In this document: one piece after another, positions 11,061-64,000 of the stretch
Layout: each line of letters opens with the position of its first letter
Position numbering within the stretch: position 1 is the first letter of the stretch
DNA from: Nannocystis pusilla
GTDB lineage: Bacteria > Myxococcota_A > Polyangia > Nannocystales > Nannocystaceae
DNA length: 64,000 bases
Direction of reading: 5' to 3'
NCBI RefSeq assembly: GCF_026626665.1
Contig: NZ_JAPNKE010000002.1
Span: forward strand, 3,629,168-3,693,167
Program-made: the position numbers and the translations under genes
The notes under the pieces: generated by a model
Told to the model about the DNA's origin: nothing
Database searches by the model: none
What the model saw: the letters and a program-made list of their open reading frames with translations, nothing else

Positions 11061-11289
11061 GCGAGGCCGACGCCCGCGTCACCGGGCGCGCGAGCGACTT
11101 CGTGGCGCAACTCGTCCCGACGCGAACGGCTCGATCGCCCGCGCGGATCGATCTTGCGCGACTTCGCCCACCCAAAACCTGGAGCAGATCCGTGTGGCCC
11201 CTGCCACAACGCTCCGGCGCCCGCGCGTCCCCGCGCATCGCTGTCGCTCGACGCCAGCGCCTGCAGGCCAGGCGTTCCGCCACGTTCTC

Positions 11290-34488: not shown

Positions 34489-34563
34489 ACGACCGCACCC
34501 TGCGTGAGAATGCGTGCTCCTGGGACAACGCCGCGCTCGCCTTCTGTAGCGAGCGCTGGTAGC

Positions 34564-41800: not shown

Positions 41801-44800
41801 GGCGCGCTGCGCAGCCTGGCCGCGCTGCACGCCAAGACCGGCCGCGAGCGCGAGGCCGCCGAGGCCTCGGCGCGCCTCTACGACGTCGAGGCCGACGGCC
41901 TCCCGCTGGAGGAGCGGATCCCCCGCGTCCTGCAGCTCGCGCGCGACCTCGCCTACCGCGCCGACCGCTCGCTCGAGGCCATCCGCCGCCTCGAGGCGCT
42001 GGTCAAGGAGACCCCCGAGACCGCCGACGTCCACGCCGAGCTGATCGAGATCCTCCAGCGCGAGGGCCTGTGGGTCCGCGCCGTCGAGGCCCTGCGCGCC
42101 GCCGCCGAGGTCGTGCCCAACCCCGACGCCCGCGTGCGCTGCCTGGCCCGCGCCGCCACCCTCACCGAGGAGCGCCTCGGCCAGCCCGACGCCGCGATCG
42201 CCGGCTGGTCCGAGGTCCTCGACCACAACCCCGGCGACCCCGACGCCCTGGTGCGCCTGCAGAGCCTCTACCTGCGCACCGAGCAGTACGCCAAGCTGCT
42301 GCCGATCCTCGACCGCCGCCTGGCCCAGGTCGCGCCCGGCGACCGCGACGCCCGCATCGCCCTCCTCGTCGTCAAGGCCCGCGCCCTGCAAGAGGGCCAG
42401 GGCGACGAGGCCGCCGCGCTCGAGACCCTCGAGACCCTCGCCGCCGAGGCCCCCGAGAACGACGACGTCGTGCTCGGCCTGTCCCGCCTCTACCGCAAGG
42501 GCGGGCGCATGGACGACGGCGTCGAGATGCTGCGCCGGCGCCTGGCCGAGATCGTCAGCGACATGGAGGTCCGCGTCGAGCCGCTCGACGAGGAGCCGCT
42601 GCCGTTCGACATCCCCGAGCCGGTCTCGCCGGCGCTGGCGGCCCGCCGCGTGCGGATCGCCGAGGCCCTGGCGACCGCCCTGGCCGAAGAGGCAGGTGAC
42701 CCCCGCGGCGCGCTCGAGACCCTCGACGAGGCGCTCGCCGCCGCCCCGCCCGACGCCGCGCTCGGCCTGCAGCGGCGCCGCGTCGCCCTCGCGCGGACCC
42801 TCGGCGACGACCGGGCCCTCACCGTCAGCCTCGCCGCCGTCGGCGAGCCCGACGGCATCCTCGAGGCCGCCGCGATCGCCCGCGACCGCCTGCACGAGCC
42901 CGAGCTGGCCGCCCATGTACACCCGCGTCCTCGCCGAGCTGGCCCCCGGCGCCCCGCAGCGCAGCCGCCGGCTGTCGCAGGCGATCGAGGGCCTGGTCGG
43001 CCTGCGCCTGGCCGCCGGCGACCTCGACGGCGCCGACGCCCTGCTCGACGCCCAGCTGGCCCAGATCGACGACCCCGAGATCCGCGCCCGGATCCTCACC
43101 GAGAGCGGCCGCGCCCTGCTGCGCGGCGGCCAGGAGCTCGCGCGCGCCCGCCAGCGCTTCGAGGCCGCCCTCGCCGCCGACCCCGACCACGCGCCCGCGC
43201 GCCTGGCCCTCGGCGCGGCCCTCATCGACGCCGGCCTGCACGCCGAGGCCGAGGCCATCCTCGAGGCCGCGGTCGAGGCGTTCGGCCTCACCCGCGACCA
43301 GCCGCGCCTGGTCGAGGGCCTCTTGATGCTGGCCCACCTGTTCGAACAGACCGACCGCGCCAACGAGGCCTACCGCCGCCTCTCGATGGCCCTGCGCCAC
43401 GTCCCCGACGACCTCGAGATCCGCGCCGCCATGGCCCACAACCGCGCCGCCGCCGGCCGCCACCGCGACGCCGTCGCCGCCCTCGAGCCGGTCGAGCAGC
43501 GCCTCGCCGCCGGCACCCCGGTCCCGCCCGAGCGCGCCCCCGTGGTCGCCGACCTGCTGATCCTCGCCGCCGAGTGCGACGCCAAGCAGAACGCCCCCGC
43601 CGAGCGCCTCGCCGCCCGCTACGCCCGCGCCCTCGAGCTGGCCCCGCGCCACCGCAAGGCCCGCGCCGCGCTGGCTCAGCTGGCCCAAGAGTCAGGCAGA
43701 CTGGTCGACGCCGCCGAGCACACCCTCGCCCTCGCCGACCTCGAGCAGGACCCCGAGGCCCGCGGCCGGGCCCTGCTCGCCGCCGGCATGCTGTTCCACG
43801 AGGCGGCCGGGGCCGCCGCCGAGACCGGCGAAGAGACCGTCGTCAGCGCCTCCGCGCAGAAGATCCTCGGCGCCGCCTTCGACGCCGTCCAGGCCGGCCT
43901 CGCCCTGATCCAGCACATCCCGCACCCGGTTCTCGACCGCCGCCAGCTCGAGGCCGCCTTCTGGACCGCCGTCTCGCGCAACGCCGGCATCGCCCTCGGC
44001 TGCCTCGACCGCCTGCTGCACCACCCCGACCTGCGCGAGGCCAAGCGGGCCGGCTTCCTGCTCGAGGGCGTCAAGATCGCCCTCCAGCGCGGCGAGCCCG
44101 GCGACCCCGAGCGCGCGCTCGCCTACGCCCGCGCCGCCGTCGAGCTGCTGCCCGACGCCGCCGCCCCGATCCACGGCCTCGTCGACGCCCTGCGGGCCTG
44201 TGGCACCGTCGAACAGATCGAGCCGGCGGTGGGCGCCTACCTGGCGCGCGACAGCGTCCAGAAGCCGCCTGGTGACCTGAGCGAGGCCCGCGATCGCCAG
44301 CGCCTGCTGGTCCGCCTGGCCGACCTCGTGGTCCAGGCCGAGCCCCCGCCTGACCCGAAGGACAGCCGGCCCGCGCAGGCGATCCGGCTGCTCGAGCGGG
44401 CCGCCGAGCTCGACCCCACCGGCCTCGGCCTGGCCCCGCGGCGCCAGCTCGCCCGGCTCTACGCCGACGAGAAGATCCAGGGCCCGCAGGTGCGCAGCAA
44501 CTCCGACGCCCTGCTCCACCTCGACCCGCTCGACGAGGCCAGCCTGGCCGCGCTCGCCCGCCACTGCGCCGAGAACGGCGAGGAGGGCCGCGCCCACGCC
44601 ATCCACCAGCTCTTGCGGATCGTCAGCCCCGGCCACGCCGAGGCCGGCGCCTTCCTCACCAGCCACGAGCTGCTGTCGGTGCGCGGCGGCAAGCTCGACC
44701 CCACCATGGTCATCGACCCGGCCCCCGCCGACGCCGGCGTGGTCCCGGCCCTCACCGCCCTGTGGGAGGGCGCCGCCGAGCTGTTGGCGGAGGAGCTGCC

Positions 44801-45536
44801 GCGCCCGCAGTTCAGCGAGGCCGCCTGGATCGAGGCCGAGACCGACAAGGACACCCTCCTGTGGAAGGTCTGGACCGAGCTCGGCACCCAGATGCCGGCC
44901 CAGGGCGTGCGCCTCGCCGACGTCGAGCTGCTCCCCGACATGCGCGTCGAGGGCGGCTGGACCAGCGTCTCGTGCGTGCATCCGCCGGTGATCGTCGTCG
45001 GCCCGGCCGCCCGCGCCGAGACCACCGCCCCGCGGCTGCGCTTCGCCCTCGGGCGCGCGCTGTTCTTCACCCGCCCCGCCGCGATCCTCGTCTCCGGCCT
45101 GCCGAAGCCGCTGTTCGCCGGCGTCCTCGCGGCCGCGCTGCAGGCCTTCCACCCGCGCCACACCCGGCGGGTGCGCGCCCGCGACGAGGCCGACCTGGCC
45201 ACACGGCTCGGCCAGACCCTCGCGCGCAAGCTGCCGATCCGCCTGGCCCGTCAGCTCAGCACCGGCTTCAAGGAGCGCGAGCAGGAGGGCTTCGACAGCC
45301 GCGACTGGCGGGCGTGGGTCCAGCGCTCCGGCGACCGCGTCGGCCTGTGCCTGTCGCGCAACCTCGGCGCCGCCCTCGACATCCTCGGCCTGCCCCAAGA
45401 GCCAGGCGAACGCAGCGCCGCCCTCAAGGCCCGCGCGGCCTTCGACGCCGACCTGCGCGACCTCCTGGTGTTCGCGGTCAGCCCCGCCTACGTCGGAGCC
45501 CGCCGCGCCCTCGGCTTCGAGGTCAAGTCCCGCTGA
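35898..45536 (+). CDS. giant (~3200 aa) TPR-repeat protein with central acidic DLADLEP repeats and Pro-rich segment; two frame breaks (~36690, ~42905)
   Basis: continuous TPR-like sequence across ORFs 35610..36836, 36740..44275, 42696..45536; possibly GltI/AgmK-like. Confidence 0.75.
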
Positions 45537-48329: not shown

Positions 48330-48620
48330 CCCGCAGGCCAGGTCCGCCCGCGCGAGCAGGCCTGTCCCCTCGGCCAGGTTCCTGGATCGCGCGGACGACC
48401 GCGCCCGCGCGAACGTCTCCGCGGATGAGACCTGCCCCATCGGCCAGGTCTTCCTGAACCGCGGCGACCGCGTCCGCGCGAACATCTCCGCGGCCGGGAC
48501 ATGTCCCATCAGCCAGGTCTTCCGCGCCGCGCCGACGACCGCGTCCCCGCGAACGTCCCCCGCGCCCAGCACCTGCCCCATCGACCAGGTCCTGCCGGGC
48601 CGGGCGGACGACCGCGCCGC
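48330..48620. repeat. ~4.5 tandem copies of ~70-bp unit each starting CCTG(T/C)CCC-N3-GGCCAGGT
   Basis: direct reading; intergenic. Confidence 0.75.
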
Positions 48621-48718
48621 GAGCGAACCGAGCCGCCCCCGCGCGGCCGCCGGCGGTCCAAACGCCCCCAGTGCGGCCATGCGTCGCGCCGCCGCCCCGG
48701 ACCGGCTACCATCCCCGC

Positions 48719-48964
48719 GTGACTCGCCTCTACAACAAGCAGACCGGCGCCCTGATCGGACCTATCACCGACGACCAGCTGCGCGACCTCATCGATCTCC
48801 TCGTCGAGGAGAGCGCCGACGACCGCGACTACTACATCGACCGCGACACCCTCGATTACCTCGAGGAGAACCAGGTCGACGCCGAGCTGCTCGCCCTGCT
48901 GCGCAAGCACGTGCCCGAGGAGGGCGAGGGCATCGACATCGAGTGGCGCCACGATCTCGCCTGA
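48719..48964 (+). CDS. small acidic hypothetical protein (81 aa)
   Basis: VTRLYNKQTGALIGPITDDQLRDLIDLLVEES.. clean ORF, GTG start. Confidence 0.5.
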   Translation: MTRLYNKQTGALIGPITDDQLRDLIDLLVEESADDRDYYIDRDTLDYLEENQVDAELLALLRKHVPEEGEGIDIEWRHDLA

Positions 48965-49150
48965 CCTGTTCGCACCACCGATGCTCTCCCCTCGCTGCCC
49001 GAGGCGGCGAGAGCATCGACCTCGACTGGGCGCGACGAGCCCGCCTGACCTGTTCGCATCGTCGATGCTCTCCCTCGCGGCCCGAGGTTCAGCCAGGAGG
49101 TCGCGCCCTGTTCGCATCGTCGAACGGCTCGCCCCGCAGCCGCGGAGGGC
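48965..49150. terminator. repeated hairpins (CGATGCTCTCCC..GAGAGCATCG) downstream of small gene
   Basis: inverted repeat read directly; 2-3 similar copies. Confidence 0.35.
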
Positions 49151-49473
49151 GAAGTCTCGCCATCGAGCGGCGCGCCTCCTCTCGACCCGTCCTCGCCGCG
49201 GAAGCGATCGCCGCGCTCCACCTTCGTGGTCCTCGCGTCGTTCGGCGTGAGGACCCGCCGCGCCTGCCGCCTTCACGTCGCTATCGCGCGGCGGCCTGCG
49301 CCGACCTGACGCCCGCGTAACGGTCCGCGCACGGACGCGCTGCATCTTCCTCCGTCGCCGCTCCGCGGGCGCGGCTTCGGCCGGATGGGTGGGCCCAGGG
49401 CGCACCTGCCCGCGGACGTCGGCTGCGGCGGCGCGAGTTGCCGGCCTTCGTTCGACTCTCGTACCCTCGCGAC

Positions 49474-51399
49474 ATGCTCGCTTACAGCTTCGCTTGTCGT
49501 TCGCTGGGTCTCGTGATGCTCGCCTCGGCCCTCGCCTGTGGTCGCACCGACACCGCAGTGCTCACGGACTCCGGCACCGGCACCACCGACACCGACGGCA
49601 CCACCACGGCGGGCAGCACCACCGGCCCCGATCTGCCGACCACGACTGCGCCGACCACCGAGACCGGCACCATGAGCGGCACCGAGACCGGCACCACCCT
49701 GGAGCCGACCACCGAGCCTGCCACCGACACCGCGATCACGAGCACCGACGGCACCGTCACCGACGGCACCATCACCGACGGCACCGCCACCTCGACCACC
49801 ACTTCGACCTCGACCACCACCACCACCGGCGAGACCGACAGCACCACCGGTCCGCCGCCGATCTGCGGCGACGGTCAGATCGATCCGGGCGAGGAGTGCG
49901 ACGACGGCGACCTCGTCGATCTCAACGCCTGCTCCAACGCCTGCATCGCCGCCGTGTGCGGCGACGGCATCGTCCAGGAGCTCGTCGGCGAGGAGTGTGA
50001 CGACGGCAACGACATCGAGGGCGACGGCTGTTCGACCGGCTGTCGCCTCCCCGTGTGCGGCGACGGCATCGTCCAGCTCACCGAGGATTGCGACGACGGC
50101 AACCTCGACGACGGCGACGATTGCACCAACGCCTGCACCACCGCCGTGTGCGGCGACGGCGTCATCCAGGTCGGCGTCGAGCCGTGCGACGACGGCAACG
50201 ACCTCGACAACGACGACTGTCTGGTCGGCTGCGTCCTCGCCGAGTGCGGCGACGGCATCGTCCACGAGCTGCTCGAGGCCTGCGACGACGGCAACGACGT
50301 CAACGACGACGCCTGCACCAACGCGTGCGCCCTCGCCACCTGCGGCGACGGCATCTTGCAGATGGACGAGGCGTGCGACGACGGCAACGCCCTCGACGAC
50401 GACGCCTGCACCACCCTGTGCAAGCTCGCGGTGTGCGGCGACGGCTTCGTCCTCGCCGGCACCGAGGAGTGCGACGACGCCGGCGACAGCCCCGCCTGCG
50501 ACAGCGACTGCACCCTCCCGCAGTGCGGCGACGCCCACCACAACCCGGCCAGCGGCGAGGCCTGCGACACCGGCGGCGACAGCCCCACCTGCGACAGCGA
50601 CTGCACCCTCGCGGTGTGCGGCGACCAGACCGTCAACGGCGCCGCCGGGGAGACCTGCGACGCCGGCACCGAGACCGCCACCTGCGACGACGACTGCACC
50701 GCCGTCGTCTGCGGCGACGAGGTCCTCAACGAGAGCGCCGGCGAGGCCTGCGATCACGGCGGCCAGACCTCCACCTGCGACCTCGACTGCACCTTCGCCG
50801 CCTGCAACGACGGCGTCATCAACAGCGCCGCCGGCGAGAACTGCGAGGACGGCAACCTCGCCGAGGGTGACGGTTGCAGCTCGAAGTGCAAGGCGCACAA
50901 GGTCGTGTTCGCCACCAGCCAGGGCTTCGACGGCAACCTCGGCGGCCTCGCCGGCGCCGACATGAAGTGCCAGGCCGCCGCCCAGGCCGCCGGCCTCCCC
51001 GGCACCTACCGCGCCTGGCTGAGCGACGACACCGGCACCCCCGTCACCCGCTTCACCAAGTCGGCCATCCCCTACGCCCGCCGCGACGGCGTCCTCGTCG
51101 CCAACAACTGGGCCGACCTCATCGACGGCACCATCGCCGCCGCCATCAACCTCTCCGAGCTCAAGACCCCGCCCGGCTCCGACGCCAACGTCTGCAGCGG
51201 CGTCTCCCAGCTCACCTTCACCAATACCATCACCAACGGCACCATGTTCGCCGACTTCACCGATTGCCAGAACTGGACCAGCAACGCCCCCGGCTTCACC
51301 GGCGGCGGCCAGTGGAACAAGGCCGACGGCCTGTGGACGCAATTCGTCTGCCAGCAATCGTGCGCCTGGAAGAAGCCGATCTATTGCTTCATGCAGTAG
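49474..51399 (+). CDS. lipoprotein with ~11 myxobacterial Cys-rich repeats (TIGR02232-like) and C-terminal DUF1554 domain
   Basis: lipobox LASALAC; repeated CGDGIVQ..EECDDGN; C-terminus KVVFATSQGFDGNLGGLAGADMKCQ.. Confidence 0.8.
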   Translation: MLAYSFACRSLGLVMLASALACGRTDTAVLTDSGTGTTDTDGTTTAGSTTGPDLPTTTAPTTETGTMSGTETGTTLEPTTEPATDTAITSTDGTVTDGTITDGTATSTTTSTSTTTTTGETDSTTGPPPICGDGQIDPGEECDDGDLVDLNACSNACIAAVCGDGIVQELVGEECDDGNDIEGDGCSTGCRLPVCGDGIVQLTEDCDDGNLDDGDDCTNACTTAVCGDGVIQVGVEPCDDGNDLDNDDCLVGCVLAECGDGIVHELLEACDDGNDVNDDACTNACALATCGDGILQMDEACDDGNALDDDACTTLCKLAVCGDGFVLAGTEECDDAGDSPACDSDCTLPQCGDAHHNPASGEACDTGGDSPTCDSDCTLAVCGDQTVNGAAGETCDAGTETATCDDDCTAVVCGDEVLNESAGEACDHGGQTSTCDLDCTFAACNDGVINSAAGENCEDGNLAEGDGCSSKCKAHKVVFATSQGFDGNLGGLAGADMKCQAAAQAAGLPGTYRAWLSDDTGTPVTRFTKSAIPYARRDGVLVANNWADLIDGTIAAAINLSELKTPPGSDANVCSGVSQLTFTNTITNGTMFADFTDCQNWTSNAPGFTGGGQWNKADGLWTQFVCQQSCAWKKPIYCFMQ

Positions 51400-51433
51400 G
51401 CGTAAGCCGAATTCTTTCTAAAGTTCCGAGCAC

Positions 51434-52519
51434 TTAGGCGTGCTCGGGAGTGCGTCTCCCCGACGTCTCCAACGCGCGAATCGCGCCAGAGCTGCCGCCA
51501 CGGCGGTCAACATAGTCGCTCGCGGTCTGCAGACTCTTGTGGCGGAGGTGGCTAGCGACGGCTGCCACGCCCCCACCGCCCTCCGCGATCCGGGTGCCGC
51601 ACGACTTGCGGAGCACATGAGTGCCACGCCAGGGCAAGCCCGCGCCCTTCACGAGCGCCCTCATCCATTTGTTCATGTTGTTCTCCTTGAAATGGCTCCC
51701 GTTGTTGTCCAGCACGAACGGGCCGAGGGCCGGGAACCCGCGCAAGACCTCAGCGAGGCGCGCCGTGAGGCCGACCTCGTCCTCGGTCCTGCCCTTCGGG
51801 AGGTCCAGCTTACCCCGGACGAGGTTGTGACGGATGGTCATCAGCCCTCGCTTGAGATTGATGTCCGTCTATTTGAGAGCGAGGATTTCTCCACGGCGAA
51901 GACCACCGTCGAGCCCCAACAAGACGATGACGACGAACCTCGGCCCGAGCGCTTGGGCCGCGGCAAGCAGCGCCGCCTGCTCCTGGTCGTCGTACGCGAC
52001 CGCGGGCTTGCGCTTCCGACGAGGAATCTCGAAATCCACCGGAGCGCACTGGATCTCCTTCTCTGCGATGGCCCGGTTGAACAGCCGGCGGAGAGTCTTG
52101 AGCACCTCGCACATCGTGTTGTGCGACTTGCTCACCAGAGACTTCTTGATCGCGGTGATGTCCTTGGGCGTCACCTCGTCGAGGCGCCGCCGAGCCAGTA
52201 CCGGGAGCAGGTACACGCGCAGATGGACGTCGTAGTTCACGAGCGTGTTGGTCCCGAGTCGGTCGGCCTGGCACAGGTCGAGGAAGGTCTTGGCAAACTC
52301 CTCGAACGTCGGGGGTGGCGGCTTCTCGGGCTCGGGCTCGGGCGCGAGGAGTTGAGCGAGGAGCTCCTGCTCGAGCGCCTTGGCCCACCGTTCGGCAGCG
52401 GACCTGCCGGTGACCGGCGCCTTGACTCGTTGGCGGAGCTTGCGCCCCACTGCGTTTTCGACGCGAACGTCAACTTCGAATTCATTCTTCGATCCCTTCC
52501 ACGGGCGCAGCGTGATCAT
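51434..52519 (-). pseudogene. tyrosine recombinase/phage integrase with in-frame TAG (expected TGG, Trp) near 51856
   Basis: ..LLGLDGGLRRGEILALK*(W)TDINLKRGLMTIRHN.. and C-terminus HVLRKSCGTRIAEGGGGVAAVASHLRHKSLQTASDYV. Confidence 0.7.
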
Positions 52520-52691
52520 GGTTGACCTCCCGCGCTCGCACTTTTCGCCGAGAGCCATTGTGCGATGATCCGAGGGTCGAAGCGAATGGTTCGGCCGAGC
52601 CGCACTACCCCAGGTACGCCGCCGCGGGAGACCCTGGCGTAGACGGCTCCTTTGCTCGTGCGGAGCAGTACAGCGAGCTCCTCAACGGTCA
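52516..52691 (-). CDS. excisionase/AlpA-like HTH protein
   Basis: MTVEELAVLLRTSKGAVYARVSRGGVPGVVRLGRTIRFDP; stop overlaps integrase start (ATGA). Confidence 0.5.
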
Positions 52692-52867
52692 TGAGAGGCG
52701 GCGGGAGGTTTTGAGTTTGGCGAGAGCTCACTCCGTCGAAACGTTGTTCGGGGCAGATCCCCTCGGGAATGTTCGCGGTGACCGAGAGAGCCCGACGACC
52801 CCCTATATTATAAGGAAGAGCTCTCGCATTCACTGTCCACCTCATCCGCCCTCAAGAGGGTCGCTCG

Positions 52868-53652
52868 TCAAGAAGTCCGAACGAAGCTGGAAACGCTGGC
52901 GAGGCCGCCCGCCGCTCGCTCGAGCGCCGGAGCGAGCGCCGCGCCCATGCTCGAAAGGCCATGTCCCGCAAGGCGCAGCGTCGTTAGACGGACTGGATAG
53001 CCCATTGCCTGGAAGGTCCGCGCCGTCGCCTGACCAGCGCTGTAGGGGACCACGGGGTCACGCATGCCGTGGACCGCTTCGATCCGCACCTGTCGGGACG
53101 GACGCGGCGGCTTGAAGCTCTCCGGTAACGCACCCGACATGGCGACCACACGATCGACGCGGCCGCTGGTCGCCAACCACCAGGCGATGTGCGCGCCCTG
53201 GCTGTATCCGACGACGATCCGCTCCGTGTAGAGCCGCTGAGTGGCGATCTGGTCCAGCACCGTCACGATCTCGGACGCGGCGCGTGAGACATCGGAGATG
53301 AATGCCGCTGCGTTGTCCTTGTAGCGCGCGCGGAACCACTGAAACCCGCTACCGCTCTTGAGACCACCACGCAGAAACACGAGCCGCATGGGCCGGTTGG
53401 AGAGCACGTACGGCGCGAGCTGCGTCTCGTCTGCGCCGACGCCATGCAAAAACAGCACGAGCGGAGCCTTCGTCCGAGCATCGCCACCTCCGAAGAGGCG
53501 CTCGACCGCGACGCGACCGGGGATCACGAGCGGAACCTGCGTGTCGGGCTCGGGGGGAGAAGCTGCGACTGTTGCGTGACCTGTCGCTTGAGCCAGACCC
53601 CTGCACCGACCACGCCCGCCGCGGCGAGCCCGCCAACAACCATGCGCTTCAT
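52868..53652 (-). CDS. alpha/beta-hydrolase (esterase/phospholipase-like) with signal peptide; frame break in CCCCCC run ~53575
   Basis: MKRMVVGGLAAAGVVGAGVW signal in one frame; LVLFLHGVGADE, GYSQGA (GxSxG) in other. Confidence 0.6.
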
Positions 53653-54079
53653 CATCCACCCCCTACTTGAAGTCCTCGTCGACCTGCACGATCGCGTGGG
53701 CGTCGATCGTCTCGTCGTCGTCGTCGCCCTAGGCGTCGTCCGCTGCGCGTTCCGCCGTTGCCGACACCGCGGCGAGACCGACGAGGACGCTCGCCGCGAA
53801 CCCGCGGTGCAACGCCGTGATCGGCCCCATCGAGCAGGTGTGCGTGTCAGCGATGCCGGCCCACCGCGCACGCGGGTGCAGGGTCGCCGTGAGCGTCCAG
53901 GGCTGAACCGTCACCACGTAGACGTTCTCAACCGTCCCAGCCATGCGCAGGATCTCGTCCATCGCTGCGCCCCTACCTGACAATGTCTTGTGAGACACGG
54001 TCCCCGCGAAGTTTAGAGAGCAGGGCGAGTCCGTGAATCCAGAGCATGAGCAAACCAACCATCCAGAGAAGCGGCAACC

Positions 54080-54450
54080 CGGAGCAATCGAGTAGGCGTT
54101 GTGTGAGCAGGACGAGGTCGTTGGCCGCCGATGCAACGAGTCAGCAACGGCGTAGTCTGGTCGAAAGTCTTGCTGCGCCTGCGGCGGCATCGAGCACCAG
54201 GAGGGTTTTCCAAGAGAGCGGCAGCCCGGAGCAATCGCGTAGGCAGGGTGTGAGCAGGACGAGGTCGTCGGCCATCGATGCGACGAATCAGCAACGGTGT
54301 AGTCCGGTCGAAAGTCTTGCTGTGCCTGCGGCGACCACGAACATCAGGCGCGCCTTCGAAACGAGGAGCAACGAGGAGCCGTCGAGTAGGCGGGATGAGA
54401 GCGGGTCGAGATCGTCGGCCGGCGATGCGACGAGTCAGCAACGGTGTAGC
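54080..54450. repeat. ~3 tandem copies of a ~125-bp unit; lower GC
   Basis: repeated CGGAGCAATCG.GTAGGC..GTGTGAGCAGGACGAGGTCGT.GGCC..CGATGCRACGAGTCAGCAACGG.GTAG.C.GRTCGAAAGTCTTGCTG. Confidence 0.7.
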
Positions 54451-54499
54451 CCGATCGAAATCCTTGCTTCGCCGGGTTCGATGCCCCGCGAAGAGCACC

Positions 54500-56080
54500 T
54501 GAGGGTGGAGTTCTACCTGGAATCGGGCGATGCAACGGAGGCATGGACCTGATGGCGACTCAAGCACGAGAGCCTAACCCCGAGACCGCCGAGAAGACGC
54601 CGCGACGCCGCTTCACGCCCGCGTACAAGTTGAAGATCCTCGCGCAGACCGACCACGCGAGCGAGGGACAGATCGGCGCCATCCTGCGCAAGGAGGGCCT
54701 GTACAGCTCGCTGTTGTCGACCTGGAGGCGCCAGCGGGACGAGGGTACCCTGGGGGCGTTGAAGCCGAAGAAGCGTGGACCGAAGCCGAAGCAGGACCCC
54801 GAGCAGAAAGAACTGGAGCGCCTGCGCCGCCGGGTGGCGCAGCTCGAGCACAAGCTCGAGACGGCGGAGCTGATCATCGACGTCCAAAAAAGTCTCGCAA
54901 TTGCTCGGGATCCCGCTCGCGACGATCGAGCCGTCCGAGAAGACCTGATCGCGCAGGCGGGCGAGCTGTCTGAGAGGACAGGTCTGCGGCAGGCGTGCGA
55001 GGCGCTGGGCGTCTCGCGCGCCACCGTGTACCGCCGTCGCCGCCCCGCGCCGGTGAAGTCGCCGAGACCGCGGAGGACGCCGCGAGCGCTGAGCCCTGGA
55101 GAGCGCCAGGAGGTGCTGGAGATGCTGCACAGCGAGCGCTTCGTCGACAAGGCGCCCGAGGTCATCGTGGCGCTCCTGCTCGACGAGGGGCGCTGGGTGT
55201 GCAGCGCGCGGACGATGTATCGCCTGCTCGCGCAGGATGGCGAGGTCCGGGAGCGCCGGCAGCAGCGGCGGCACACCGAGTACAAGCGCCCCGAGCTGCT
55301 GGCGACCGCGCCGAACCAGGTGTGGTCGTGGGACGTCACCTGGCTGCGAGGACCGACCCGGGGCCAATACTACTACCTGTACGTCCTGCTCGACATCTAC
55401 AGCCGCTGCGTCGTCGGCTGGACCCTGGCGCACCGCGAGAGCGCCGACCTCGCCGCGCGCCTGCTCCGCACCACCTACGACAAACAACAATTAGACCTGA
55501 TCAATTGACCATTCACGCCGATCGCGGCGCCGTCCAGACGTCCCGCGAGCTCGCCGACCTCTACCAAGCCCTGGGCGCCCGCCGCTCGCACAGCCGGCCC
55601 CACGTCAGCGACGACAATCCCTACTCCGAGGCCCACTTCAAGACCCTCAAGTACACCCACGACTACCCCGACCGCTTCGCCTCCTACGACGAAGCACACA
55701 CCTTCTGCGCCCGCTTCATCGACGGCTACAACCACCACCACCGTCACTCCGGCATCGCCTTCCTCGCCCCCGCGGACGTGCATTACGGCCGCACCGAGGC
55801 CGTCCTGTCCGTCCGGACTGCCGCCCTCCACGCCGCCTACGCCGCCCACCCGGAGCGCTTCGTCCATGGAAGACCCACGCCGCACCGGCCTGCCGCCGCG
55901 GTCTACATCAACCCTCCGGGCCGCCCCGAGCGCGGCCCTCGCGAGTACGAAGTCCATGTCCTTACGGACAGGTGCATCGCGATGGATCCACCTTCGGAGC
56001 ACCTCTCCGGTGAAATCTCACATTCACTAAACCTGATCAGCACCGTGTCTCAAAGTCATTGACAGGCTCCGTCCCGCCGT
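54500..56080 (+). mobile_element. IS3-family insertion sequence (boundaries approximate)
   Basis: OrfA-like HTH/leucine zipper, A6G slippery heptamer at 54889-54895, OrfB DDE domain; low-GC termini. Confidence 0.75.
54543..56062 (+). CDS. IS3-family transposase OrfA-OrfB (orfA and orfB N-part share one frame here; further shift ~55495)
   Basis: ..KPKKRGPKPK..LERLRRRVAQLEHKLETAELIIDVQKK; ..QVWSWDVTWL..YYLYVLLDIYSRCVVGW..IHADRGAVQTS..HVSDDNPYSEAHFKTLKY. Confidence 0.85.
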
Positions 56081-56204
56081 CTTGGAGCGCCCTCTCGCAG
56101 AGGAGTCGCTCGGCGGCGTGGAGGTCAAAGCTCTCGAGGACGATCGGGGTCAGCAGCTTCTCGGTCATGCAAACCAAGACTCTTGAGCAAGCCGACCGAT
56201 TCGG

Positions 56205-56720
56205 GTGAGCGGCGCGCGAACGCTCACGAACTCGGGCGGCATCGAGCATCGCCGCCAGAACGAGAGGTCTCTCATCTGCAGACAGCCCCCCACATCCGAG
56301 GGGGAAATCCCTATCATCGCCGGCCGGATGTTCGACGAGGAGGCTGAAGTACGACTCGGCTTGGGACAACGCGTGCTGCTGGTGCGGCGCACGGCGCTCC
56401 ATCGGCCCTCCTCGAACGGTTCGGTTGAAATCCGCCGCAACCGAGAGGTGATCTCTGTGGCGTCGCATCGGGTGCATGCGATCACGCCGACCCTGGCTGT
56501 GTCGCTCGCCCGAGAACTGCTGCGCCCCGACGTGATGGGCTTCGGCACGGGTTTCTTGGGGGACCTGACCATGCGGTACGGCTTCGATCGACGGCAGCAG
56601 GGTCTCGAGCATCTCCTGACTAGCTCCTTCCTGATGATCGAGCTCGAGGACGAGCGCGGGCGATGGGGGGTCCTGCGGTTCAGACGCGGCGGCAGGAAGC
56701 AGAGCCCGAGATCCGCATGA
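56205..56720 (+). CDS. hypothetical protein (first of three translationally coupled ORFs)
   Basis: 171 aa, GC3-biased frame; stop overlaps next start (ATGA). Confidence 0.35.
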   Translation: MSGARTLTNSGGIEHRRQNERSLICRQPPTSEGEIPIIAGRMFDEEAEVRLGLGQRVLLVRRTALHRPSSNGSVEIRRNREVISVASHRVHAITPTLAVSLARELLRPDVMGFGTGFLGDLTMRYGFDRRQQGLEHLLTSSFLMIELEDERGRWGVLRFRRGGRKQSPRSA

Positions 56721-56926
56721 AGCCGCTGACTTGGGTCGCGTTGAGCGTCGTGGACGACGAAGAACCTGCGCGGCCGCTGCCAAAGCTGCGCTTCCAGATG
56801 CGCTTGCCGGACGGTTCTACTCGGACCGGTGCACTCGATGGGCAAGGCTACGTCCTTGTCGAGGACATCGACCCGGGTCGGTGCTGGGTCGAGCTCAAGG
56901 ACATTCGGCGAGGCTTCACACGATGA
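56717..56926 (+). CDS. small hypothetical protein
   Basis: MKPLTWVALSVVDDEEPARPLPKLRFQMRLPDGSTRTGALDGQGYVLVEDIDPGRCWVELKDI; ATGA overlap both sides. Confidence 0.4.
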   Translation: MKPLTWVALSVVDDEEPARPLPKLRFQMRLPDGSTRTGALDGQGYVLVEDIDPGRCWVELKDIRRGFTR

Positions 56927-57330
56927 CCGCGCGCACGATCAAAGTCCGGGCGCGCCTCGACGGTTCGCTCGACTTGTTCCCTCTCGACACCGGCGCCGAG
57001 ACTCGGATCGTCGTGCAGCGCCCCAACTGCACATCCTCGAGGTCGCGCGGTTCTCGTTCTTCGAGGACCGCGAGATCTTGCTGCCGGACGTCGAGCGCCT
57101 GGCACCCGACGAGCCCGGTCCTGATCGGGTCCCGGGCATCGAGGTCGCCGCCGCAGCTCTGCGGTTTCTCTACGAGCACCAGGACAAGAAGCTGCTCGTC
57201 GTGGGGCACACCGACACTGTCGGCTCCAAGAAGGACAACAAGACGCTGTCCGAGGACCGGGCCAAGAACGTCTGGTTCTACCTCTCCGGCGACATCGACG
57301 GCTGGGCGGCGCACTCTCTCAAGAAACGGC
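56923..57330 (+). CDS. OmpA/MotB-like peptidoglycan-binding domain protein, frame break ~57030 and 3' end truncated at IS110
   Basis: ..FFEDREILLPDVERLAPDEP..ALRFLYEHQDKKLLVVGHTDTVGSKKDNKTLSEDRAKNVWFYLSGD.. then no canonical OmpA C-terminal end. Confidence 0.5.
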
Positions 57331-57339
57331 CCTCTCCGC

Positions 57340-58960
57340 GCGGCCTGGGCCTGGGTTCACGGGACGTCTGTTCGTCGCGCGGCCCGGGCTTTGCGGGGGC
57401 GGGGTTGTCAGGCCGCCGGGCGCATCTCGACCTCGTAGCCGAGGTCGCGGATGCGGCGAACGAGGCGGGACGCAGCGCGCTCGCGGTCGTGGCGGTTGAA
57501 ATGTTCGGCGCCGAGGTCGCGGTAAGGTTCCCCGTCACGGAGCATCCCGTGGACCGCGGTGAGGATCGCGGCGGCGACGGCGGCGATCGCCTTCTTCTTG
57601 CCCTGTCGCGCTCGGACGCGATGAAAGAGCGCGCAGAGGTAGCCTTCCTTGCGGATGCCGGACCATGCGCTTTGGATGAGGATCGTCTTGAGCCACGCAT
57701 TGCCCTTGCGCATGCGGTTGGAGCGGCGCTTGCCGGCGCTCTCGTCCATGCGGGGGCACAGGCCTGCCCACGAGCGCAGATGGCCTGCGGAACGGAAGCG
57801 GCTCATATCGACGCCGACCTCGGCGATGATGGTCTGCGCGGCCGTCGGTCCGACTCCAGGGATCGTCTGGAGTAGCTCGACGGCCTTAGCAAAAGGGCGC
57901 AGCTCTTCCTCGATCCGCTTCTCGAGTTCAGCGATCGATGCCTGCAGCGAGTCGATGAGCCGGAGGTGGGTCGAGATGAGCATGCGGTGATGATCGCGCA
58001 CGCGGCCGCGGAGCGCTTCCATGAGCTTGCCGCGCTTGCCCTTCAGCGTCCCGCGAGCGAGGCCGGCGAGCTTCACGGGATCGGACTCGCCCGCAACCAT
58101 CGCCTCGAGCATCGCCCGCCCGCTCTTGCCGAGAATGTTGGAGGCGACCGAGGCGAGCTTGATGTTGCAGGTCTCCAGCACCTTCTGGATCCGCTGTGTA
58201 TGCTCGACGACCTCGCGCGAGAGCTGCTTGCGCGTCCGGGTCAGATCCCGCAGATCTGCGATCGGCTCGGGGGGCACGAAGCTCGCGCGCACGAGCCCGT
58301 GCGCGATCAAGTCCGCGAGCCACATCGCGTCGTTCATGTCGGTCTTGCGACCAGGCACGTTGCGAACCTCGTGCGCGTTCGCCAGCACCAGTTCGACACG
58401 ACCCGCGAGGAGTTGCCAGACGGGCTTCCAGTACACGCCGGTCGCTTCGATGACTGCGATCGTACAGCCGCTGTCCTCGAGCCAGTCCCCGAGCCGAATC
58501 AACTCCGAGGTCATCGTGCCGAAGGTCCGGACCTCCCGGTCGACCTTGTTGCCCTTCATGCGTCGCACGCAGACAACGATGCTGTCCTTGTGGACATCCA
58601 TGCCTGCACAAGTCCCGTACATCACTTCCATGGCGATCCTCCGTGAAGAACGCCGGCATGAGGGCCCCTAACTCGAAGTCTCTCAAACGCGCTCCAGCAG
58701 GTCCAAGGACCTCCTGCTCGCAACCAAGGGTGCTCACGGGCCCTCCGGTCCAACTCAGAAACGGGCTCACCCTGCACCAGTGCGTGAACGACCTCTTCGC
58801 CGGCATTCGCGGCGAAATACTCCGCCGCGCGAAACCGCGCAATGCCCGCCAAGGCCCCTCCGGGGGGCCCAGGGCCGTTTCATCCCCGCGGGTCGGCGCC
58901 AGCCGGTGGAAACTCAGAGGGTGGCGACACCGCGGGGTAGAGCTCTTTCCAGCGCTTGAC
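57340..58960 (-). mobile_element. IS110-family insertion sequence (boundaries approximate)
   Basis: contains IS110 transposase 57408..58631. Confidence 0.7.
57408..58631 (-). CDS. IS110-family transposase
   Basis: MEVMYGTCAGMDVHKDSIVVCV..IAVIEATGVYW..(DEDD N-domain) and ..IPGVGPTAAQTIIAEVG..RSAGHLRSWAGLCP.. C-domain. Confidence 0.9.
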   Translation of the reverse strand: MEVMYGTCAGMDVHKDSIVVCVRRMKGNKVDREVRTFGTMTSELIRLGDWLEDSGCTIAVIEATGVYWKPVWQLLAGRVELVLANAHEVRNVPGRKTDMNDAMWLADLIAHGLVRASFVPPEPIADLRDLTRTRKQLSREVVEHTQRIQKVLETCNIKLASVASNILGKSGRAMLEAMVAGESDPVKLAGLARGTLKGKRGKLMEALRGRVRDHHRMLISTHLRLIDSLQASIAELEKRIEEELRPFAKAVELLQTIPGVGPTAAQTIIAEVGVDMSRFRSAGHLRSWAGLCPRMDESAGKRRSNRMRKGNAWLKTILIQSAWSGIRKEGYLCALFHRVRARQGKKKAIAAVAAAILTAVHGMLRDGEPYRDLGAEHFNRHDRERAASRLVRRIRDLGYEVEMRPAA

Positions 58961-59143
58961 CTGCTTGTCAGTCGGCTGTCCCCCTCGACCAATGCCATGC
59001 CGGATGCACACGGCTCGCCAGCCTTGGCCGGCTCAGCCTCGGACGCCCGCACTTCTGCCTTGTCTGACCCCACGTCCGGCTGAGACGTTGAAGCCTGGGG
59101 TTGCACGGGTGCTTTCTGCGGCTCGCGGCAGGAAACGAGCGAA

Positions 59144-60081
59144 GTGGACGCCATCAAGGCTATTGAAAAACGAAGTCCTCTCACCGGCCCACATGCTAAC
59201 CCAGCTTCTGACCGGCACACAGCGTCGACGAAGAGGTGGGACCGTAGCGCGTCGAGCCCGGGCCGGCCTCGCGTCGTATCCTTCGTCGCGCTCGGCGGCG
59301 AAGGTAAGACGGCACGACCAAGTGCGCTTTGAGGAGGCGGACGTTGAGGAGCAGGGCGGGCATGCGTTCCTGGTAATGGACCGCTACGTGGCATGGTTCG
59401 AGGCCGACGAGGCGGGCCGGCAGGCGATGGCGCTGCTCCGTCTGATGGGCCTCTTCGATCGGCCGGCGGCCGACCCTGTCTTCACATCGCTGCTGGCGGA
59501 GCCTGTTATCGTAGGGTGGACCGAGGCAGCGGCCGGCCTGAGCGAGGTGCAGCGCAACGTGGCGCTCAAGCGCTTGAAGGCCGTGCAGTTGCTGACTGTG
59601 GAGCGCGAGGGCCAGACGCAAGTCGCCTACGACGCCCACCCGCTGGTGCGCGAATACTTCGCCCAGCGGCTTCAGGAGACCCGCGGCGAGGCGTGGCGGG
59701 CGGGGCACCGCCGGCTCTTCGAGTATCTGCGTGCCTCGGTGGCACCAACCGGCGACCCTCAAGGGGCTGCAGCCGCTCTACCAGGCGGTGGCTCACGGCT
59801 GCTTGGCGGGGCTGGACCGCGCGGCCTGCGACGAGGTGCACAACGACCGCATTCTCCGCGGGACGGGCCCTGGCGGCTTCTACAGCGTTAAAATGCTCGG
59901 TGCGATCGGTGTCTCGCTGGGCGCGGTCGCCAGCTTCTTCGACCCGCCGTGGCGCCGCCCGAGTCCGTCGCTTGAATCGGCTGCTCGGGGTGAGCTCGGG
60001 CGCGCCAATGTGCTCGCCGTCCCCCGCGGCGATGCAGATAGGCCGGACATCCACGCCACACACGTTGGCATCCTCATCTGA
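59144..60081 (+). pseudogene. degraded NB-ARC/STAND NTPase remnant (Walker A then internal deletions and frame shifts)
   Basis: VVSFVALGGEGKTA (P-loop), ..LLRLMGLFDRPAADPV.., ..LQPLYQAVAHGCLAGLDRAACDEVHNDRILRG..GFYSVKMLGAIG.. in three frames. Confidence 0.5.
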
Positions 60082-60156
60082 AGAGGAGAAGGAAGGCCCA
60101 TCCACTTGTGAGATGCGGCACACTCGCCGTGGCGTTATGATGATGCGCCCGCGTCC

Positions 60157-63100
60157 ATGGCCACAGAGCAGCAGCTCGCCCTTGTCGATGCGCTCGAGCG
60201 CCACAAGCTGCTCGTGTGCGTCGGGCCGCTCGTGCCGATGGCGGCCGGGCTGCCGGGACTCCGCGATCTGATCGAGCGCTGTCGACTGCGGCTCGTGGAG
60301 CTCGGGCACCACGAGCCGGACCTATCGGGGTCCTTCGCGGACGCGCTCGAGCACGCTGAGCGTCTAATCGGCAGCGCCCCGTTCACGAGCCTCGTGCGTG
60401 CGGCCTGGGAGCCCGTGGTGCCGGTACCGGTGCCGGCGTCGGCGCAGGCGTTGGTCGGGTTGTCGACAGGCCTGAACGCGCTCGTCACCACCAACCTCGA
60501 CCGACTGCTCGAGCGTGCCTTCGAGGGCCGCTGGCACACCATCGAGGAGTTCACTCCGGACCTGGCCAAACGGACACGTGTGATCTTCAAGGTCCGCGGG
60601 ACAGTCGGCCAGTCGACCACGTGGAGGCTGACGGCTCGGCAGCAAGCCAACGACCACCTCGCCGACGCTCCGCGCCGGCACGCGTTGGCGGCGCTGCTGC
60701 GGAACCATGTCGTGCTGTTTGTCGGCTTCGCGCCGGACGACGAGGCACTCTCAGAGTTACTCGACGTCCGCGGGCATCCGGTCGCCGACGAGCGCCGTCG
60801 AGCGACTGAGACCTCGCACCCCGACGTCGCGCTGGTGCCCGCAGCGACCCTGCGCGAGCGGGCCGCGCTCGGCGCTCGCGGCGTCGAGGTGGTGCCCCTC
60901 GCCGGCGAGTACGACGCCGCGGCCGCGGCCTACCTGCAGACGCTCGCCGACGAACTCGGGCGCCGCACCCATCGGCCCGTACCGACCGTGGCGGCCGAAG
61001 TCGACGCGGCCGAGCCGGACGAGGAGAACCCGTACCCCGGCCTTCAACCCTTCACCGCCAGAAACCGCCGCTACTTCTTCGGCCGCGAGGAGGACCTGTC
61101 GCGCGTGGTTGCCCAACTCGGGCAGACCGGCAGGACCTCGCACTCGTGGCTGCTGGTCGACGGACCGAGTGGGGTCGGCAAGTCATCGCTGCTGCAGGCG
61201 GGCCTGTTGCCGGCGCTGGAGCAAGGCGAGCTGCAAATCCTGGCCGTGCCGCGGGCCTGGCGAACCGTCACCCTGCGACCCGGCCCCGCACCGGTGGTCG
61301 AGCTCGCCAACCAGTTCCATCGCGCGCTCATCGGCGACGGCCTATGCGACCTGACGGCAAGCGCGCTCGGGGCCGCGGTCCAGCACCGGGCCGCGGCGCT
61401 CGTTGAGTTCGTCGCGGCGTGCCTGCCCGCGAGCGACGGCCTCGTGCTGCTCGTCGACCAGCTTGAGGAGGCCCTGCTCGTACCCGACGCCGGCGCACGC
61501 GAGGGCTTCGCCGCGGCGCTTGCCGAGTTGCTCATGCGCTCGCCCCGACCGCTGCTGCTCATCACCGCGCTGCGCAGCGACTTCTTGGGCGACCTGCCGC
61601 GCCTGCCGGCCCTGTACGAGCGCATAACGAGCACGAGCCCGCCGGCTCGCTACACCCTGGCGACATTGAGGTCGGCGCAGCTCGCCGCGGCGATCGAGCA
61701 CCCAGCCCGCAAGGCGCGCGCTGAGCTCGAGCCGGGCCTCGCCGCGCGCGTCCTCGCCGACGCCGGAAACATCGAGCGCGGCGGAGGTGAAGACGCGACG
61801 CCCGAGACGGCCCTGCCGCTGGTCGCCGCGGTAATGACGAGCCTGTACGACCAGCGCGCCGGACGGCACCTGACCCACGCGCAATACGAGGCGCTTGGCG
61901 GCGTCGCCGGCGCACTGACCGGGCGTGCCGACGAGGCCCTCGTACCGCTGCGCTCGAGGGTTGCCGAGGCCGAGCTGTGGACCTTCTTCCGCCAATTCGT
62001 TGCGGCCGACTCGCAGGGACGTATGACCCGGCGCTCGGTGCCGCGGACCGACGCCCTGACCCCGCTCGGTGGTGGCCTGGCTGCCGAGAACCTGCTCGCC
62101 CACCTGACCGGCAGCGCGCGGTCGATGCGGCTAATCATCGTCCGCGCCGAGGGCGACGGCCGGCGCGTCGACCTCGCCCATGACGCGCTCTTACGGAATT
62201 GGAAATGGCTGCGCGACCACATCGACCGCGACCGTGTTGAGGTGCTGCGGGAGTCGGAGCTCGCGCAGGCTGCCGCGCGTTGGGACCGACTCGGCCGCCC
62301 CCGCGACGGCCTGCCGAGCGGCGCCGAGGCAAAGTATTTCCTGCGCGCTAGCACCGTTGCCGGTTCGCTGCCGAGGGCATATCAAGACGCCCTGCGCGCG
62401 CACATGCGACGGCGCCGTCGCGCTGGTCTTGCGGTCATCGCCGTGCTGGCAAGCGGCGTGTTGACGTTGGCCGGGGTCAGCGTCTACGCGTGGAAGCAGC
62501 GCGGCGAGACACTGGCGAAGACACAGCTCGCCGAGGAGTGGCTCGACGCAGCGAACTCCATCTCCCTGGAGGAGCGCGGGAGCATGGAGGAGAGCGCGGG
62601 CAACCTCGCCGCCGCCCGCGGCCACTTCGAACGTTCCGTCAAGGCACGCGAACTGCTGGCTGCCGCCGACCCGACCGGCGCCCAGGCCCAGCGCGCTCTC
62701 TCCATCGCCCTGGAGAGGCTTGGGAACCTGGAAGTGCAGGCGGGCAACCTCGTAGCCGCCCGCGGCTACTTCGAGCGTTCCGTCAAGGCCCGCGAAGTGC
62801 TGGCCACCACCGACCCGACCAGCAATCGGGTTCAGAGCGACCTCTCTGAATCTCTGGAGAGGCTCGGGGACGTGGAGGTGCAGGCGGGCAACCTTATCGC
62901 CGCACGCGGCCTCTTCGAACGGTCCGTCAAGGCCCGCGAGATGCAGGCTGCCGATCTGACCGGTATCCAGGACCAGTTCGAGTTCCAGTGGGCCTTGGGC
63001 GGCCTCTCCATCTCCCTGCTCAAGCTCGGGGAGGTGGAGGTACAGGCGGGCAACCTCGTCGCCGCCCGCGGCCACTTCGACCGTTCCCTCAAGATCGCCG

Positions 63101-64000
63101 AAGCGGTGGCCGCCGCCGACCCGATCCTGGGCCAGTCGGCCGCCCAGCGCGACCTCTCCGTTGCCCTGGAGAGGCTTGGAAACCTGGAGGTACAGGTGGA
63201 AACCTGGCCGCCGCTCGCGGTCACTTCGACCGCTCCCTCAAGATCAGCGATGCGCTGGCCGCCGCCGACCCGACCAGCACCGAGGCGCAGCGCGACCTCT
63301 TCATCTCTCTGGATAAGCTCGGGGACGTGGAAGTGCAGGCGGGCAACCTCGCTGCCGCCCGTGGCCACTTCGACCGTCTCCTCAAGATCGCCGAAGCGCT
63401 GGCTGCCGCCGACCCGACCAGCACCCAGCCCCAACGCGACCTCTCCGTTGCCCTGGAGAGGCTTGGGAACCTGGAGGTACAGGCGGGCAACCTCGCCGCC
63501 GCTCGCGGCCACGTCGACCGCTCTCTCAAGATCGGCGAAGCGCTGGCCGTCGCCGACCCGACCAGCACCCAGGCCCAGCGCGACCTCTCCGTCTCTCTGA
63601 TCAAGCTCGGGAAGGTGGAAGTGCAGGCGGGCAACCTCGCTGCCGCCCGCGGCCACTTCGACCGTTTTTTCCAGATCGCCGAAGCGCTGGCCGCCGCCAA
63701 CCCGACCAGCAGCCAGGCCCAGCGCGACCTCTCCGTCTCTCTGATCGAGCTCGGGGATGTGGAAGTGCAGGCGGGCAACCTCGCTGCCGCTCGCGGCCAC
63801 TTCGACCGCTCCCTCAAGATCGACGAAGTGCTGGCCGCCGTCGACCCGACCAGCACCAAGGCCCAGCGCGACCTCTCCGTCTCCTTGACGAGGCTCGGGG
63901 ACGTGGAAGAGAAGGCGGGCAACCTCGCTGCCGCCCGCGGCCACTTCGACCGCTCCCTCAAGTCTACGAAGCGCTGGCCGCCGTGGACCCGACCAGCACC
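60157..64000 (+). CDS. SIR2-like domain / STAND P-loop NTPase / TM helix / tandem 48-aa helical repeats; runs past window end, with frame breaks ~63195 and ~63960
   Basis: LLVCVGPLVPMAAGLPG.. and HVVLFVGFAPDDEAL (SIR2/DHS-like); NPYPGLQPFTARNRRYFFGREEDL + GPSGVGKSS (Walker A); RAGLAVIAVLASGVLTLAGVSVYAW TM; repeats AGNLAAARGHFERSVKARELLAAADPT.. Confidence 0.8.

Follow-up and report, generated by a model that had tools for sequence, protein, structure and literature searches.

The window analysed here is a 64,000-nucleotide (nt) stretch of the Nannocystis pusilla contig NZ_JAPNKE010000002.1 (positions 3,629,168 to 3,693,167, forward strand), and all coordinates below are those of the window. 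Several of its proteins are identical to N. pusilla proteins with OV079_ locus tags, including a lipoprotein (MCY1007051) and an open reading frame (ORF) product (MCY1007063). From position 51400 to beyond the right end of the window lies a segment of accessory genes headed by a tyrosine integrase pseudogene and an excisionase (Xis)-type gene. These are followed by an esterase-like ORF, an IS3-family element, a truncated OmpA-like gene, an IS110-family element and two NLR-like genes (Table 1). Almost all components named in the original prediction were found, at its coordinates or close to them. With a probability of about 0.85, this segment represents the left part of an integrative genomic island, inserted by its integrase, now immobile, and with a cargo that is eroding.

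Table 1. Features of the left junction and of the island portion contained in the window (+, forward; -, reverse;., no strand assigned; aa, amino acids).
Feature	Position	Strand	Basis and remarks
Candidate attachment (att) core TATTGCTTCATGCAGTAG	51382-51399	+	Last five codons and stop of the DUF4215-family gene 49438-51399; boundary 51399/51400
Conserved element arm	51400-51447	.	GAATTC box and hairpin CCGAGCAC-N6-GTGCTCGG (51426-51447); hairpin overlaps the integrase stop codon
Tyrosine integrase pseudogene, 361 codons	51434-52519	-	Pfam PF00589/PF14659/PF22022; Phage_integrase 5e-16
Excisionase-type HTH_17 protein, 58 aa	52516-52692	-	PF12728; TIGR01764; MCY1007056
Abhydrolase_2 carboxylesterase-like ORF	52868-53659	-	PF02230 3e-16; true start uncertain
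Hypothetical ORF, 77 aa, hydrophobic C-terminus	53729-53962	-	GC3 (GC content at third codon positions) frame plot; MCY1007058
IS3-family element, ~2.1 kb	53976-56066	+	Imperfect 25/26-bp inverted repeats 53976-54001 and 56042-56066; TG...CA ends at 53978 and 56064
Tandem array, 3 x 147 bp	54070-54510	+	TRF period 147, 2.7 copies, 81% matches; repeat family D5
IS3 transposase	54543-56062	+	Pfam, frame plot; HTH_Tnp_1, HTH and N-terminal rve in one frame (54543-55508), rve_3 in another
Start of a small ORF, ~33 N-terminal codons (MTEKLLTPIVLESFDLHAAERLL...)	56067-56168	-	Direct reading; extends into IS3 at its right end
Hypothetical ORF, 130 aa from MFDEE	56328-56720	+	Frame plot; open from 56205
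OmpA-like gene fragment	56923-57315	+	ATG 56923; PF00691 24-64/98; NCBIfam OmpA-type matches; frame plot
IS110-family element, 1603 bp	57316-58918	-	Transposase 57408-58631; 287-nt 5' non-coding end, 92-nt 3' end
NACHT/STAND-TPR remnant	59238-60000	+	Without NTPase domain; frame change near 59746-59759
SIR2_2-nSTAND1-TM-TPR gene (TM, transmembrane helix)	60157-64000 (runs off the window)	+	SIR2_2 60478-60888 (6e-15, 56 bits); nSTAND1 61030-62304 (PF20703, 7e-80, 270 bits)

Insertion boundary and base composition

Two other N. pusilla strains provide reference loci, CP185339.1 (L067) and JBMEQO010000002.1 (L068), fetched via the orthologues of a lipoprotein gene that lies ~3 kb left of the island and is conserved across Nannocystis. 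Both are collinear with the window, at 92-97% identity, from ~37000 to exactly 51400, the base that follows the stop codon of a DUF4215-family gene, and neither aligns any further. The integrase is absent from the orthologous locus in both. The empty site of the two strains reads ...TATTGCTTCATGCA[A/G]TAG|GACCCGG..., and the occupied site of the window ...TATTGCTTCATGCAGTAG|GCGTAAGCCGAATTC.... Synteny with both conspecific strains thus ends at 51400 and the segment is missing from each of them, which makes it a strain-specific insertion that starts at 51400, and both the insertion and its exact position are read directly from the comparison. The original prediction had let the island begin at the integrase (51434), which has to be corrected. 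Synteny of the whole segment in relatives without mobile genes, named there as the finding that would speak against an island, is not seen, both strains being devoid of the whole segment.

The segment also deviates in base composition. GC content is ~73% for the whole window, 0.728 for positions 1-51399 and 0.675 for 51400-64000 (Mann-Whitney p = 1e-5 on 1-kb windows). Within the island, it is 0.661 for 51400-60156 and 0.707 for the SIR2-STAND gene (60157-64000). The GC3 of the island ORFs amounts to 0.80-0.87, versus 0.86-0.98 for upstream ORFs that had been picked with GC3 > 0.85. The lower overall GC announced in the original prediction therefore holds, and the drops to ~58-62% that it reported for several stretches come down to some 180-nt windows at 57-62%. 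Strain-specific presence, a site-specific recombinase gene at the border and a deviant composition, three of the usual marks of genomic islands, are thus found together. No tRNA gene and no Rfam family were found in the window.

The opposite polarity, namely an ancestral segment that both reference strains lost by precise excision, is improbable. The boundary is base-precise at the recombinase core, as would be expected after clean excision, and related integrases are widespread in the genus. On the other hand, the lower GC and GC3 argue for a foreign origin, and the cargo proteins, which fall into clusters of one to two members, have no counterpart at 90% identity or more in other N. pusilla genomes. 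The segment would be a mobile island in either direction.

Candidate attachment site at the end of a secreted-protein gene

The insertion of an integrative island at 51400 receives further support from the anatomy of the junction. The HTH_17-integrase gene pair lies tail-to-tail with a DUF4215-family gene not only in the window but also in Nannocystis sp. RBIL2, N. punicea, SCPEA4 and two metagenome contigs. Integrases at these junctions, which belong to four Nannocystis-like genomes, are 72-94% identical to that of the window. The adjoining DUF4215-family genes share only 33-47% identity with the window gene and their outer flanks are unrelated, so the occupied targets are different paralogs. 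Homology among the occupied sites sets in within the target gene, over its last 17-25 nt, and covers the GAATTC box and the hairpin before reaching the integrase 3' end. The shared core, TAYTGCTTCNWGCAGTRR, is an 18-bp near-palindrome encoding Y-C-F-x-Q-stop, and its N. punicea version, TACTGCT-TCG-AGCAGTA, is a near-perfect palindrome. This core is present at the occupied junctions (L063, L064, L065 and L024/25). It is also kept in six DUF4215-family genes without integrase, including those of the two reference strains, where unrelated sequence follows. The arm formed by the GAATTC box and the hairpin, in contrast, is kept in all occupied junctions and missing from the empty sites. The core pattern has three matches in the window, against 0.21 expected by chance, and the junction, read on both strands, accounts for two of them. 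Judged from these alignments, the site has the anatomy of an att junction, with the crossover falling within the final codons of the target gene.

The element would thus have been inserted by a tyrosine recombinase, with an excisionase-type HTH protein as its partner, at the 18-bp core that ends a DUF4215/endostatin-like secreted-protein gene, and the element-side arm would regenerate the end of this target gene. The recombination chemistry would be that known for the integrase family. Some integrative genomic islands and prophages, such as phage 21 and e14 in the icd gene of E. coli, integrate at the 3' end of a gene that codes for a protein and restore that end. The island resembles such elements by its integrase and Xis at the edge, its crossover in the last codons, the functional gene end that is kept, its foreign composition and its absence from sister strains. 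It differs from them in that the target is a near-palindromic C-terminal motif of a multigene family, with different paralogs occupied in different genomes, and in that a single junction is visible and the integrase is dead.

There are roughly even odds that this Nannocystis integrase lineage uses as attB the Y-C-F-x-Q-stop gene ends of the whole DUF4215/endostatin-like secreted paralog family. If so, a single type of element would have many landing sites per genome, perhaps in both orientations, as hinted by a mirrored junction in N. pusilla CP185339 (locus L066). The 3' ends of the DUF4215 family would then be hotspots gathering NLR-like and other accessory cargo. The candidate att site of a genus-wide integrase lineage could also become an integration tool for Nannocystis, for which few genetic tools exist.

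In locus L066, a 70% identical integrase and its long same-strand cargo are followed by an orphan core, TATTGCTTCGAGCAGTGA, and then by a mirrored hairpin of the integrase 3' end (11083-11260). A 24-nt direct repeat is found another 9.9 kb on, at 21055-21078. This arrangement hints at tandem or inverted integrations at the palindromic core.

Integrase and excisionase

The integrase retains its catalytic domain and motifs (GLRRGE, HVLRKS, HLRHKS and SDY), and its stop codon lies 35 nt from the junction. Its reading frame is interrupted only once, by a TAG codon at 51869-51871 that comes right behind the Arg-I box. A tryptophan occupies this position in every intact homologue (six homologues), within the motif GLRRGEIL-x-L-[KQ]-W-[ST]-D. 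The TGG->TAG stop that had been noticed in the sequence is therefore borne out. Because of this nonsense codon, the element looks immobile, and the change just past the Arg-I box would account for its present immobility. Once repaired, the integrase has one orthologue per genome across Nannocystis, with identities of 94% in RBIL2, 89% in N. punicea (P0001, intact), 85% in SCPEA4, 71% in N. bainbridge and 70% in N. pusilla CP185339. The closest of these orthologues, that of RBIL2 (L063 10001-10906), has been inactivated independently, by an internal deletion of ~177 bp that removes the Arg-I box.

The Xis-like gene, which overlaps the integrase start by 4 nt, is recognised by both PF12728 and TIGR01764, in agreement with its initial assignment. 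The same HTH_17-integrase gene pair occurs at four other Nannocystis loci (L063-L066). Integrase and Xis match phage integration and excision PHROGs, and the 70% identical integrase of CP185339 heads a long same-strand operon comprising an M23 peptidase, an S49-type protease and an SNF2 helicase, as might be the case in a prophage. A degraded prophage is nevertheless a very unlikely description of the segment, since its 12.6 kb contain no recognisable structural, packaging or lysis gene and the integrase family has no relative in IMG/VR.

Insertion sequences and the truncated OmpA-like gene

Two insertion sequence (IS) elements of different ages are found in the integrated segment. The older one belongs to the IS3 family, as first proposed, on account of its transposase and its inverted repeats. 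As in other members, an OrfA-like part with HTH_Tnp_1 precedes a DDE (rve) part, and the 25/26-bp inverted repeats end in TG...CA. The window copy measures ~2.1 kb versus ~1.2-1.5 kb for the family. The excess is due to a 565-bp leader, which separates the left inverted repeat from the transposase and harbors three 147-bp repeats. These form the tandem array of the original prediction, which had given it a period of 125 bp and placed it beside the IS3 element, not inside. Further differences from the family are OrfA and OrfB parts lying in one frame, a disabling frameshift inside the rve catalytic core (near 55490-55510), and the lack of a 3-5 bp target-site duplication, the flanks CTACC and GGCTC being mismatched. 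The 147-nt units display no unusual RNA fold and no Rfam match; a structured RNA was rejected, their fold z-scores being ~0.

A copy of this IS3 element is found in RBIL2, with 87.5% identity, the same order and orientation relative to int-xis, and a 537-bp internal deletion. Homology begins and ends within 5-8 nt of the IS3 ends, and the copy also contains the 147-bp array (L063 ~4830-5235). Its identity resembles the integrase divergence (84-90%), which marks the IS3 element as old, whether it came along with the int-xis module or was gained on its own. An early insertion would explain the presence of a ~12% diverged copy at the same relative position.

The younger element belongs to the IS110 family. 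Its ends were set by ten independent metagenome copies of 98.9-99.5% identity, each with different flanks. Its transposase (MCY1007062) matches NF033542 with 280 bits and comprises the DEDD_Tnp_IS110 and Transposase_20 domains. The element thus combines the transposase domains of the family with discrete ends common to several copies and no inverted repeats. Since the copies are ~99% identical and have different flanks, the insertion is recent. The element is multi-copy in N. pusilla and N. exedens, and one independent contig stops 5 nt away from the end of this copy. The element shares with the RNA-guided IS110 transposases (NF033542) its domains, the absence of terminal inverted repeats, a long 5' non-coding end and near-identical copies. 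In contrast with these, no bridge RNA is demonstrable and the flanks of the 11 copies reveal no obvious common target. The 287-nt 5' end has a fold z-score of 0.09 and no Rfam match, which speaks against a structured RNA there; the 99% identity of the copies leaves no covariation for a bridge RNA.

Three minor observations concern IS110. Near its 5' end (58900-58936), the window copy lacks one C (TTTCC-ACCGG) compared to nine other copies. The 15-mer CCCGCGGTGTCGCCA, common to the flank of the window copy and that of another one (L005), was considered as a target and is not a repeated motif in the window. One metagenome copy adjoins a Coq4 gene (L001 1736-2413), and in N. punicea a Coq4 gene (L064 16317-16961) is located ~6 kb from the orthologous integrase, maybe by coincidence.

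IS110 cuts the OmpA domain of the preceding gene at profile position ~64-74 of 98, so that no complete OmpA_C-like domain remains. A probable 1-nt frameshift is found upstream in the C-run 57018-57027. The OmpA-like frame stops at IS110 and does not resume on its other side, which implies an adjacent deletion or an IS-IS recombination. Such an event, following the recent IS110 insertion, would have taken away the 3' end of the OmpA-like gene and probably the NTPase part of the NACHT-TPR gene. The original description of a three-gene OmpA-like operon truncated by IS110 holds for the truncated gene, not for the operon, as at most two forward-strand ORFs precede IS110.

NLR-like genes

The first of the two NLR-like genes, identified from the outset as a STAND remnant, has 147 homologues, and the alignment spans its joined frames. 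It corresponds to residues 208-407 of the homologue P0151, directly after the NACHT domain of the latter (residues 18-179). No relative of the remnant was found in the PDB. An independent assembly (L069) reproduces its sequence. The remnant was also considered as a paralog fragment of the neighboring SIR2-STAND gene, which was rejected since the two are unrelated.

The second gene combines an N-terminal effector, an nSTAND1 NTPase and C-terminal repeats, and thereby qualifies as an nSTAND1 NLR-like protein. Its C-terminus is made of 48-aa TPR-like repeats that continue past the window edge. The gene is present as predicted, with its SIR2_2, nSTAND1 and TPR parts, and is itself frameshifted twice. 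The spacings in its TPR array are 293 and 143 instead of 288 and 144 (144-bp register), pointing to 1-nt deletions at ~63199/63200 and ~63962/63963. The gene thus looks inactivated, as far as can be read from its sequence. It is annotated by PGAP as a 1147-aa "SIR2 family protein" (MCY1007065), and an intact relative, P0260, is 1370 residues long.

Modular conflict-system NTPases with nSTAND1 have been described by Kaur et al. 2021 (PMC8195603). The relatives of the window protein keep nSTAND1, with TIR or a kinase taking the place of SIR2 and WD40 that of the TPR part, which fits this description. The SIR2-nSTAND1-TPR combination is a rare architecture, shared with three to four other database proteins in a word-indexed search. 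By analogy with its family, an intact SIR2-nSTAND1-TM-TPR protein would sense an invader through its repeats, oligomerise through its NTPase and deplete NAD+ through SIR2. The tripartite organisation, SIR2 effector, STAND NTPase and C-terminal repeat sensor, is common to the nSTAND1 NLR-like conflict proteins (PMC8195603) and to the SIR2-STAND antiviral proteins of Avs type. The window gene differs from these by its two frameshifts, by a TM helix between NTPase and repeats, and by the lack of a PADLOC match to the Avs models, the only matches being weak ones to ThsA-SIR2 (E ~3e-4). It is therefore not filed under Avs.

A single TM helix, preceded by RRRRR, is predicted at ~62450-62520 (residues ~766-788), where the nSTAND1 NTPase gives way to the TPR repeats. 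Seven of the eight relatives examined, which contain SIR2, TIR, kinase or WD40 domains, have an equivalent helix; according to hydropathy, the exception is P0261. The predicted helix suggests a membrane-spanning sensor, and the positive-inside rule would place the repeats in the periplasm.

Reliability of the lesions

Three genes of the island are truncated; in addition, there are several frameshifts and one nonsense mutation. It is improbable that the frameshifts are assembly or sequencing artefacts and that the cargo genes are intact in the organism. Such artefacts do occur, as the sister assembly L068 is full of single-base homopolymer deletions. Moreover, the OmpA-like frameshift is located in a CCCC run, those of the TPR part in a highly repetitive array, and PGAP regards the SIR2 gene as coding for a normal protein. 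Against this, the window has no unique homopolymer indel in the 8.4 kb aligned with the two other strains. The independent assembly, from run ERR2215891, reproduces 58923-62628, including the frameshift of the STAND remnant, with a C5/C6 run as the only difference. The integrase defect is a base substitution, the IS truncations are structural, and the first TPR deletion is accompanied by substitutions.

Extent and nature of the island

Several observations weigh against the interpretation as an integrative island with a decaying cargo. The first is the DNA on the right of the empty site, which differs between the two reference strains. Both share ~250 nt after the stop codon, then diverge (3.3 kb in one strain, 1.8 kb in the other), and collinearity resumes at genes for an ECF sigma factor and CarboxypepD_reg proteins. 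This marks the locus as a variable hotspot, where the island may have built up from more than one insertion. Second, a single junction is seen. The search for flanking att direct repeats proposed in the original prediction yields one core next to 51400 and no second copy in 51400-64000, the right end being located beyond the window; an element bounded by two att sites is thus undemonstrated. Third, PADLOC recognises no defence system among nine island proteins. Fourth, frameshifts are not confined to the island, since a 2-nt (GC) deletion at 42915 shifts the frame of a giant core TPR gene (36740-45536, ~2900 codons) relative to the two N. pusilla strains. Frameshifts are, nonetheless, far denser in the island than in the core. 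Finally, both TPR frameshifts and the OmpA frameshift are covered by no independent sequence.

The first of these observations is related to a view in which the segment is a stack of at least two independent insertions at a recombination hotspot, an int-xis-esterase module on one side and separately acquired OmpA, NACHT and SIR2-STAND cargo on the other. This is possible and rather unlikely. Beside int-xis, N. punicea, RBIL2, SCPEA4 and the window each bear a wholly different cargo, the two empty-site strains do not agree with one another right after the site, GC rises at the start of the SIR2-STAND gene, and the closest homologue of this gene (63%, L011) has unrelated neighbours. However, 51400-64000 contains neither an internal att core nor a second integrase, and successive insertions would be compatible with an integrative island and not an alternative to it.

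The full extent of the island may be estimated from the annotation. In OV079, the orthologue of one of the CarboxypepD_reg genes is MCY1007077. If accession numbers follow gene order, ~11 further annotated proteins would separate the end of the window from the conserved right flank, and about the left half of the island would fall inside the window. The right-flank proteins of CP185339 have no 90% cluster mates in OV079, except for the more distal CarboxypepD_reg and sigma genes. A metagenome scan with a flank protein recovered no near-identical strain (best match 63%), yielding instead occupied and empty paralog sites.

The original prediction had spoken of a defence/accessory island still being remodelled. 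The island and its accessory nature are supported, as is the remodelling, with a young IS110, an old decayed IS3 and broken genes. The "defence" label is weakly supported, as a defence island would be a cluster of recognised systems, and only NLR-like genes are found here, one of them a remnant and the other frameshifted. "Accessory island" is therefore the safer label. The phenomenon itself is ordinary, a decaying integrative island of a well-known element type, and leaves current concepts unchanged. Its interest lies in showing, with base precision, gene flux at the level of strains in a myxobacterium whose genome is very large (~12 Mb), and in an example of an island fixed in place and then taken apart by IS elements. 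Mildly novel points are the att core common to a paralogous gene family, the IS3 element with tandem repeats and the TM-containing nSTAND1 architecture.

Other features of the window

Of the remaining island ORFs, the esterase had been predicted as secreted. Its PF02230 match upholds the esterase assignment; no signal peptide is recognisable, and secretion is not retained. The coding signal is weak upstream of ~53400, in the 5' region of this gene, with two in-frame stops standing between this region and the 77-aa ORF. The latter has no family match. The same holds for the small ORF that runs into IS3, which is possibly, with low confidence, a Fis-type HTH gene cut by this element. The 130-aa ORF has no match in Pfam, NCBIfam, PADLOC or PHROGs.

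Outside the island, a local GC dip to 0.62 at 34504-35181 corresponds to a 225-aa ORF with a HEAAH metalloprotease-like motif, which may be another small foreign gene. Two tandem repeats, at 48361-48621 (69 bp x 3.7) and 48912-49087 (84 bp x 2.1), flank a small ORF (48671-48964), and the stretch that bears them is the part of the core flank least conserved between strains (84-85%).

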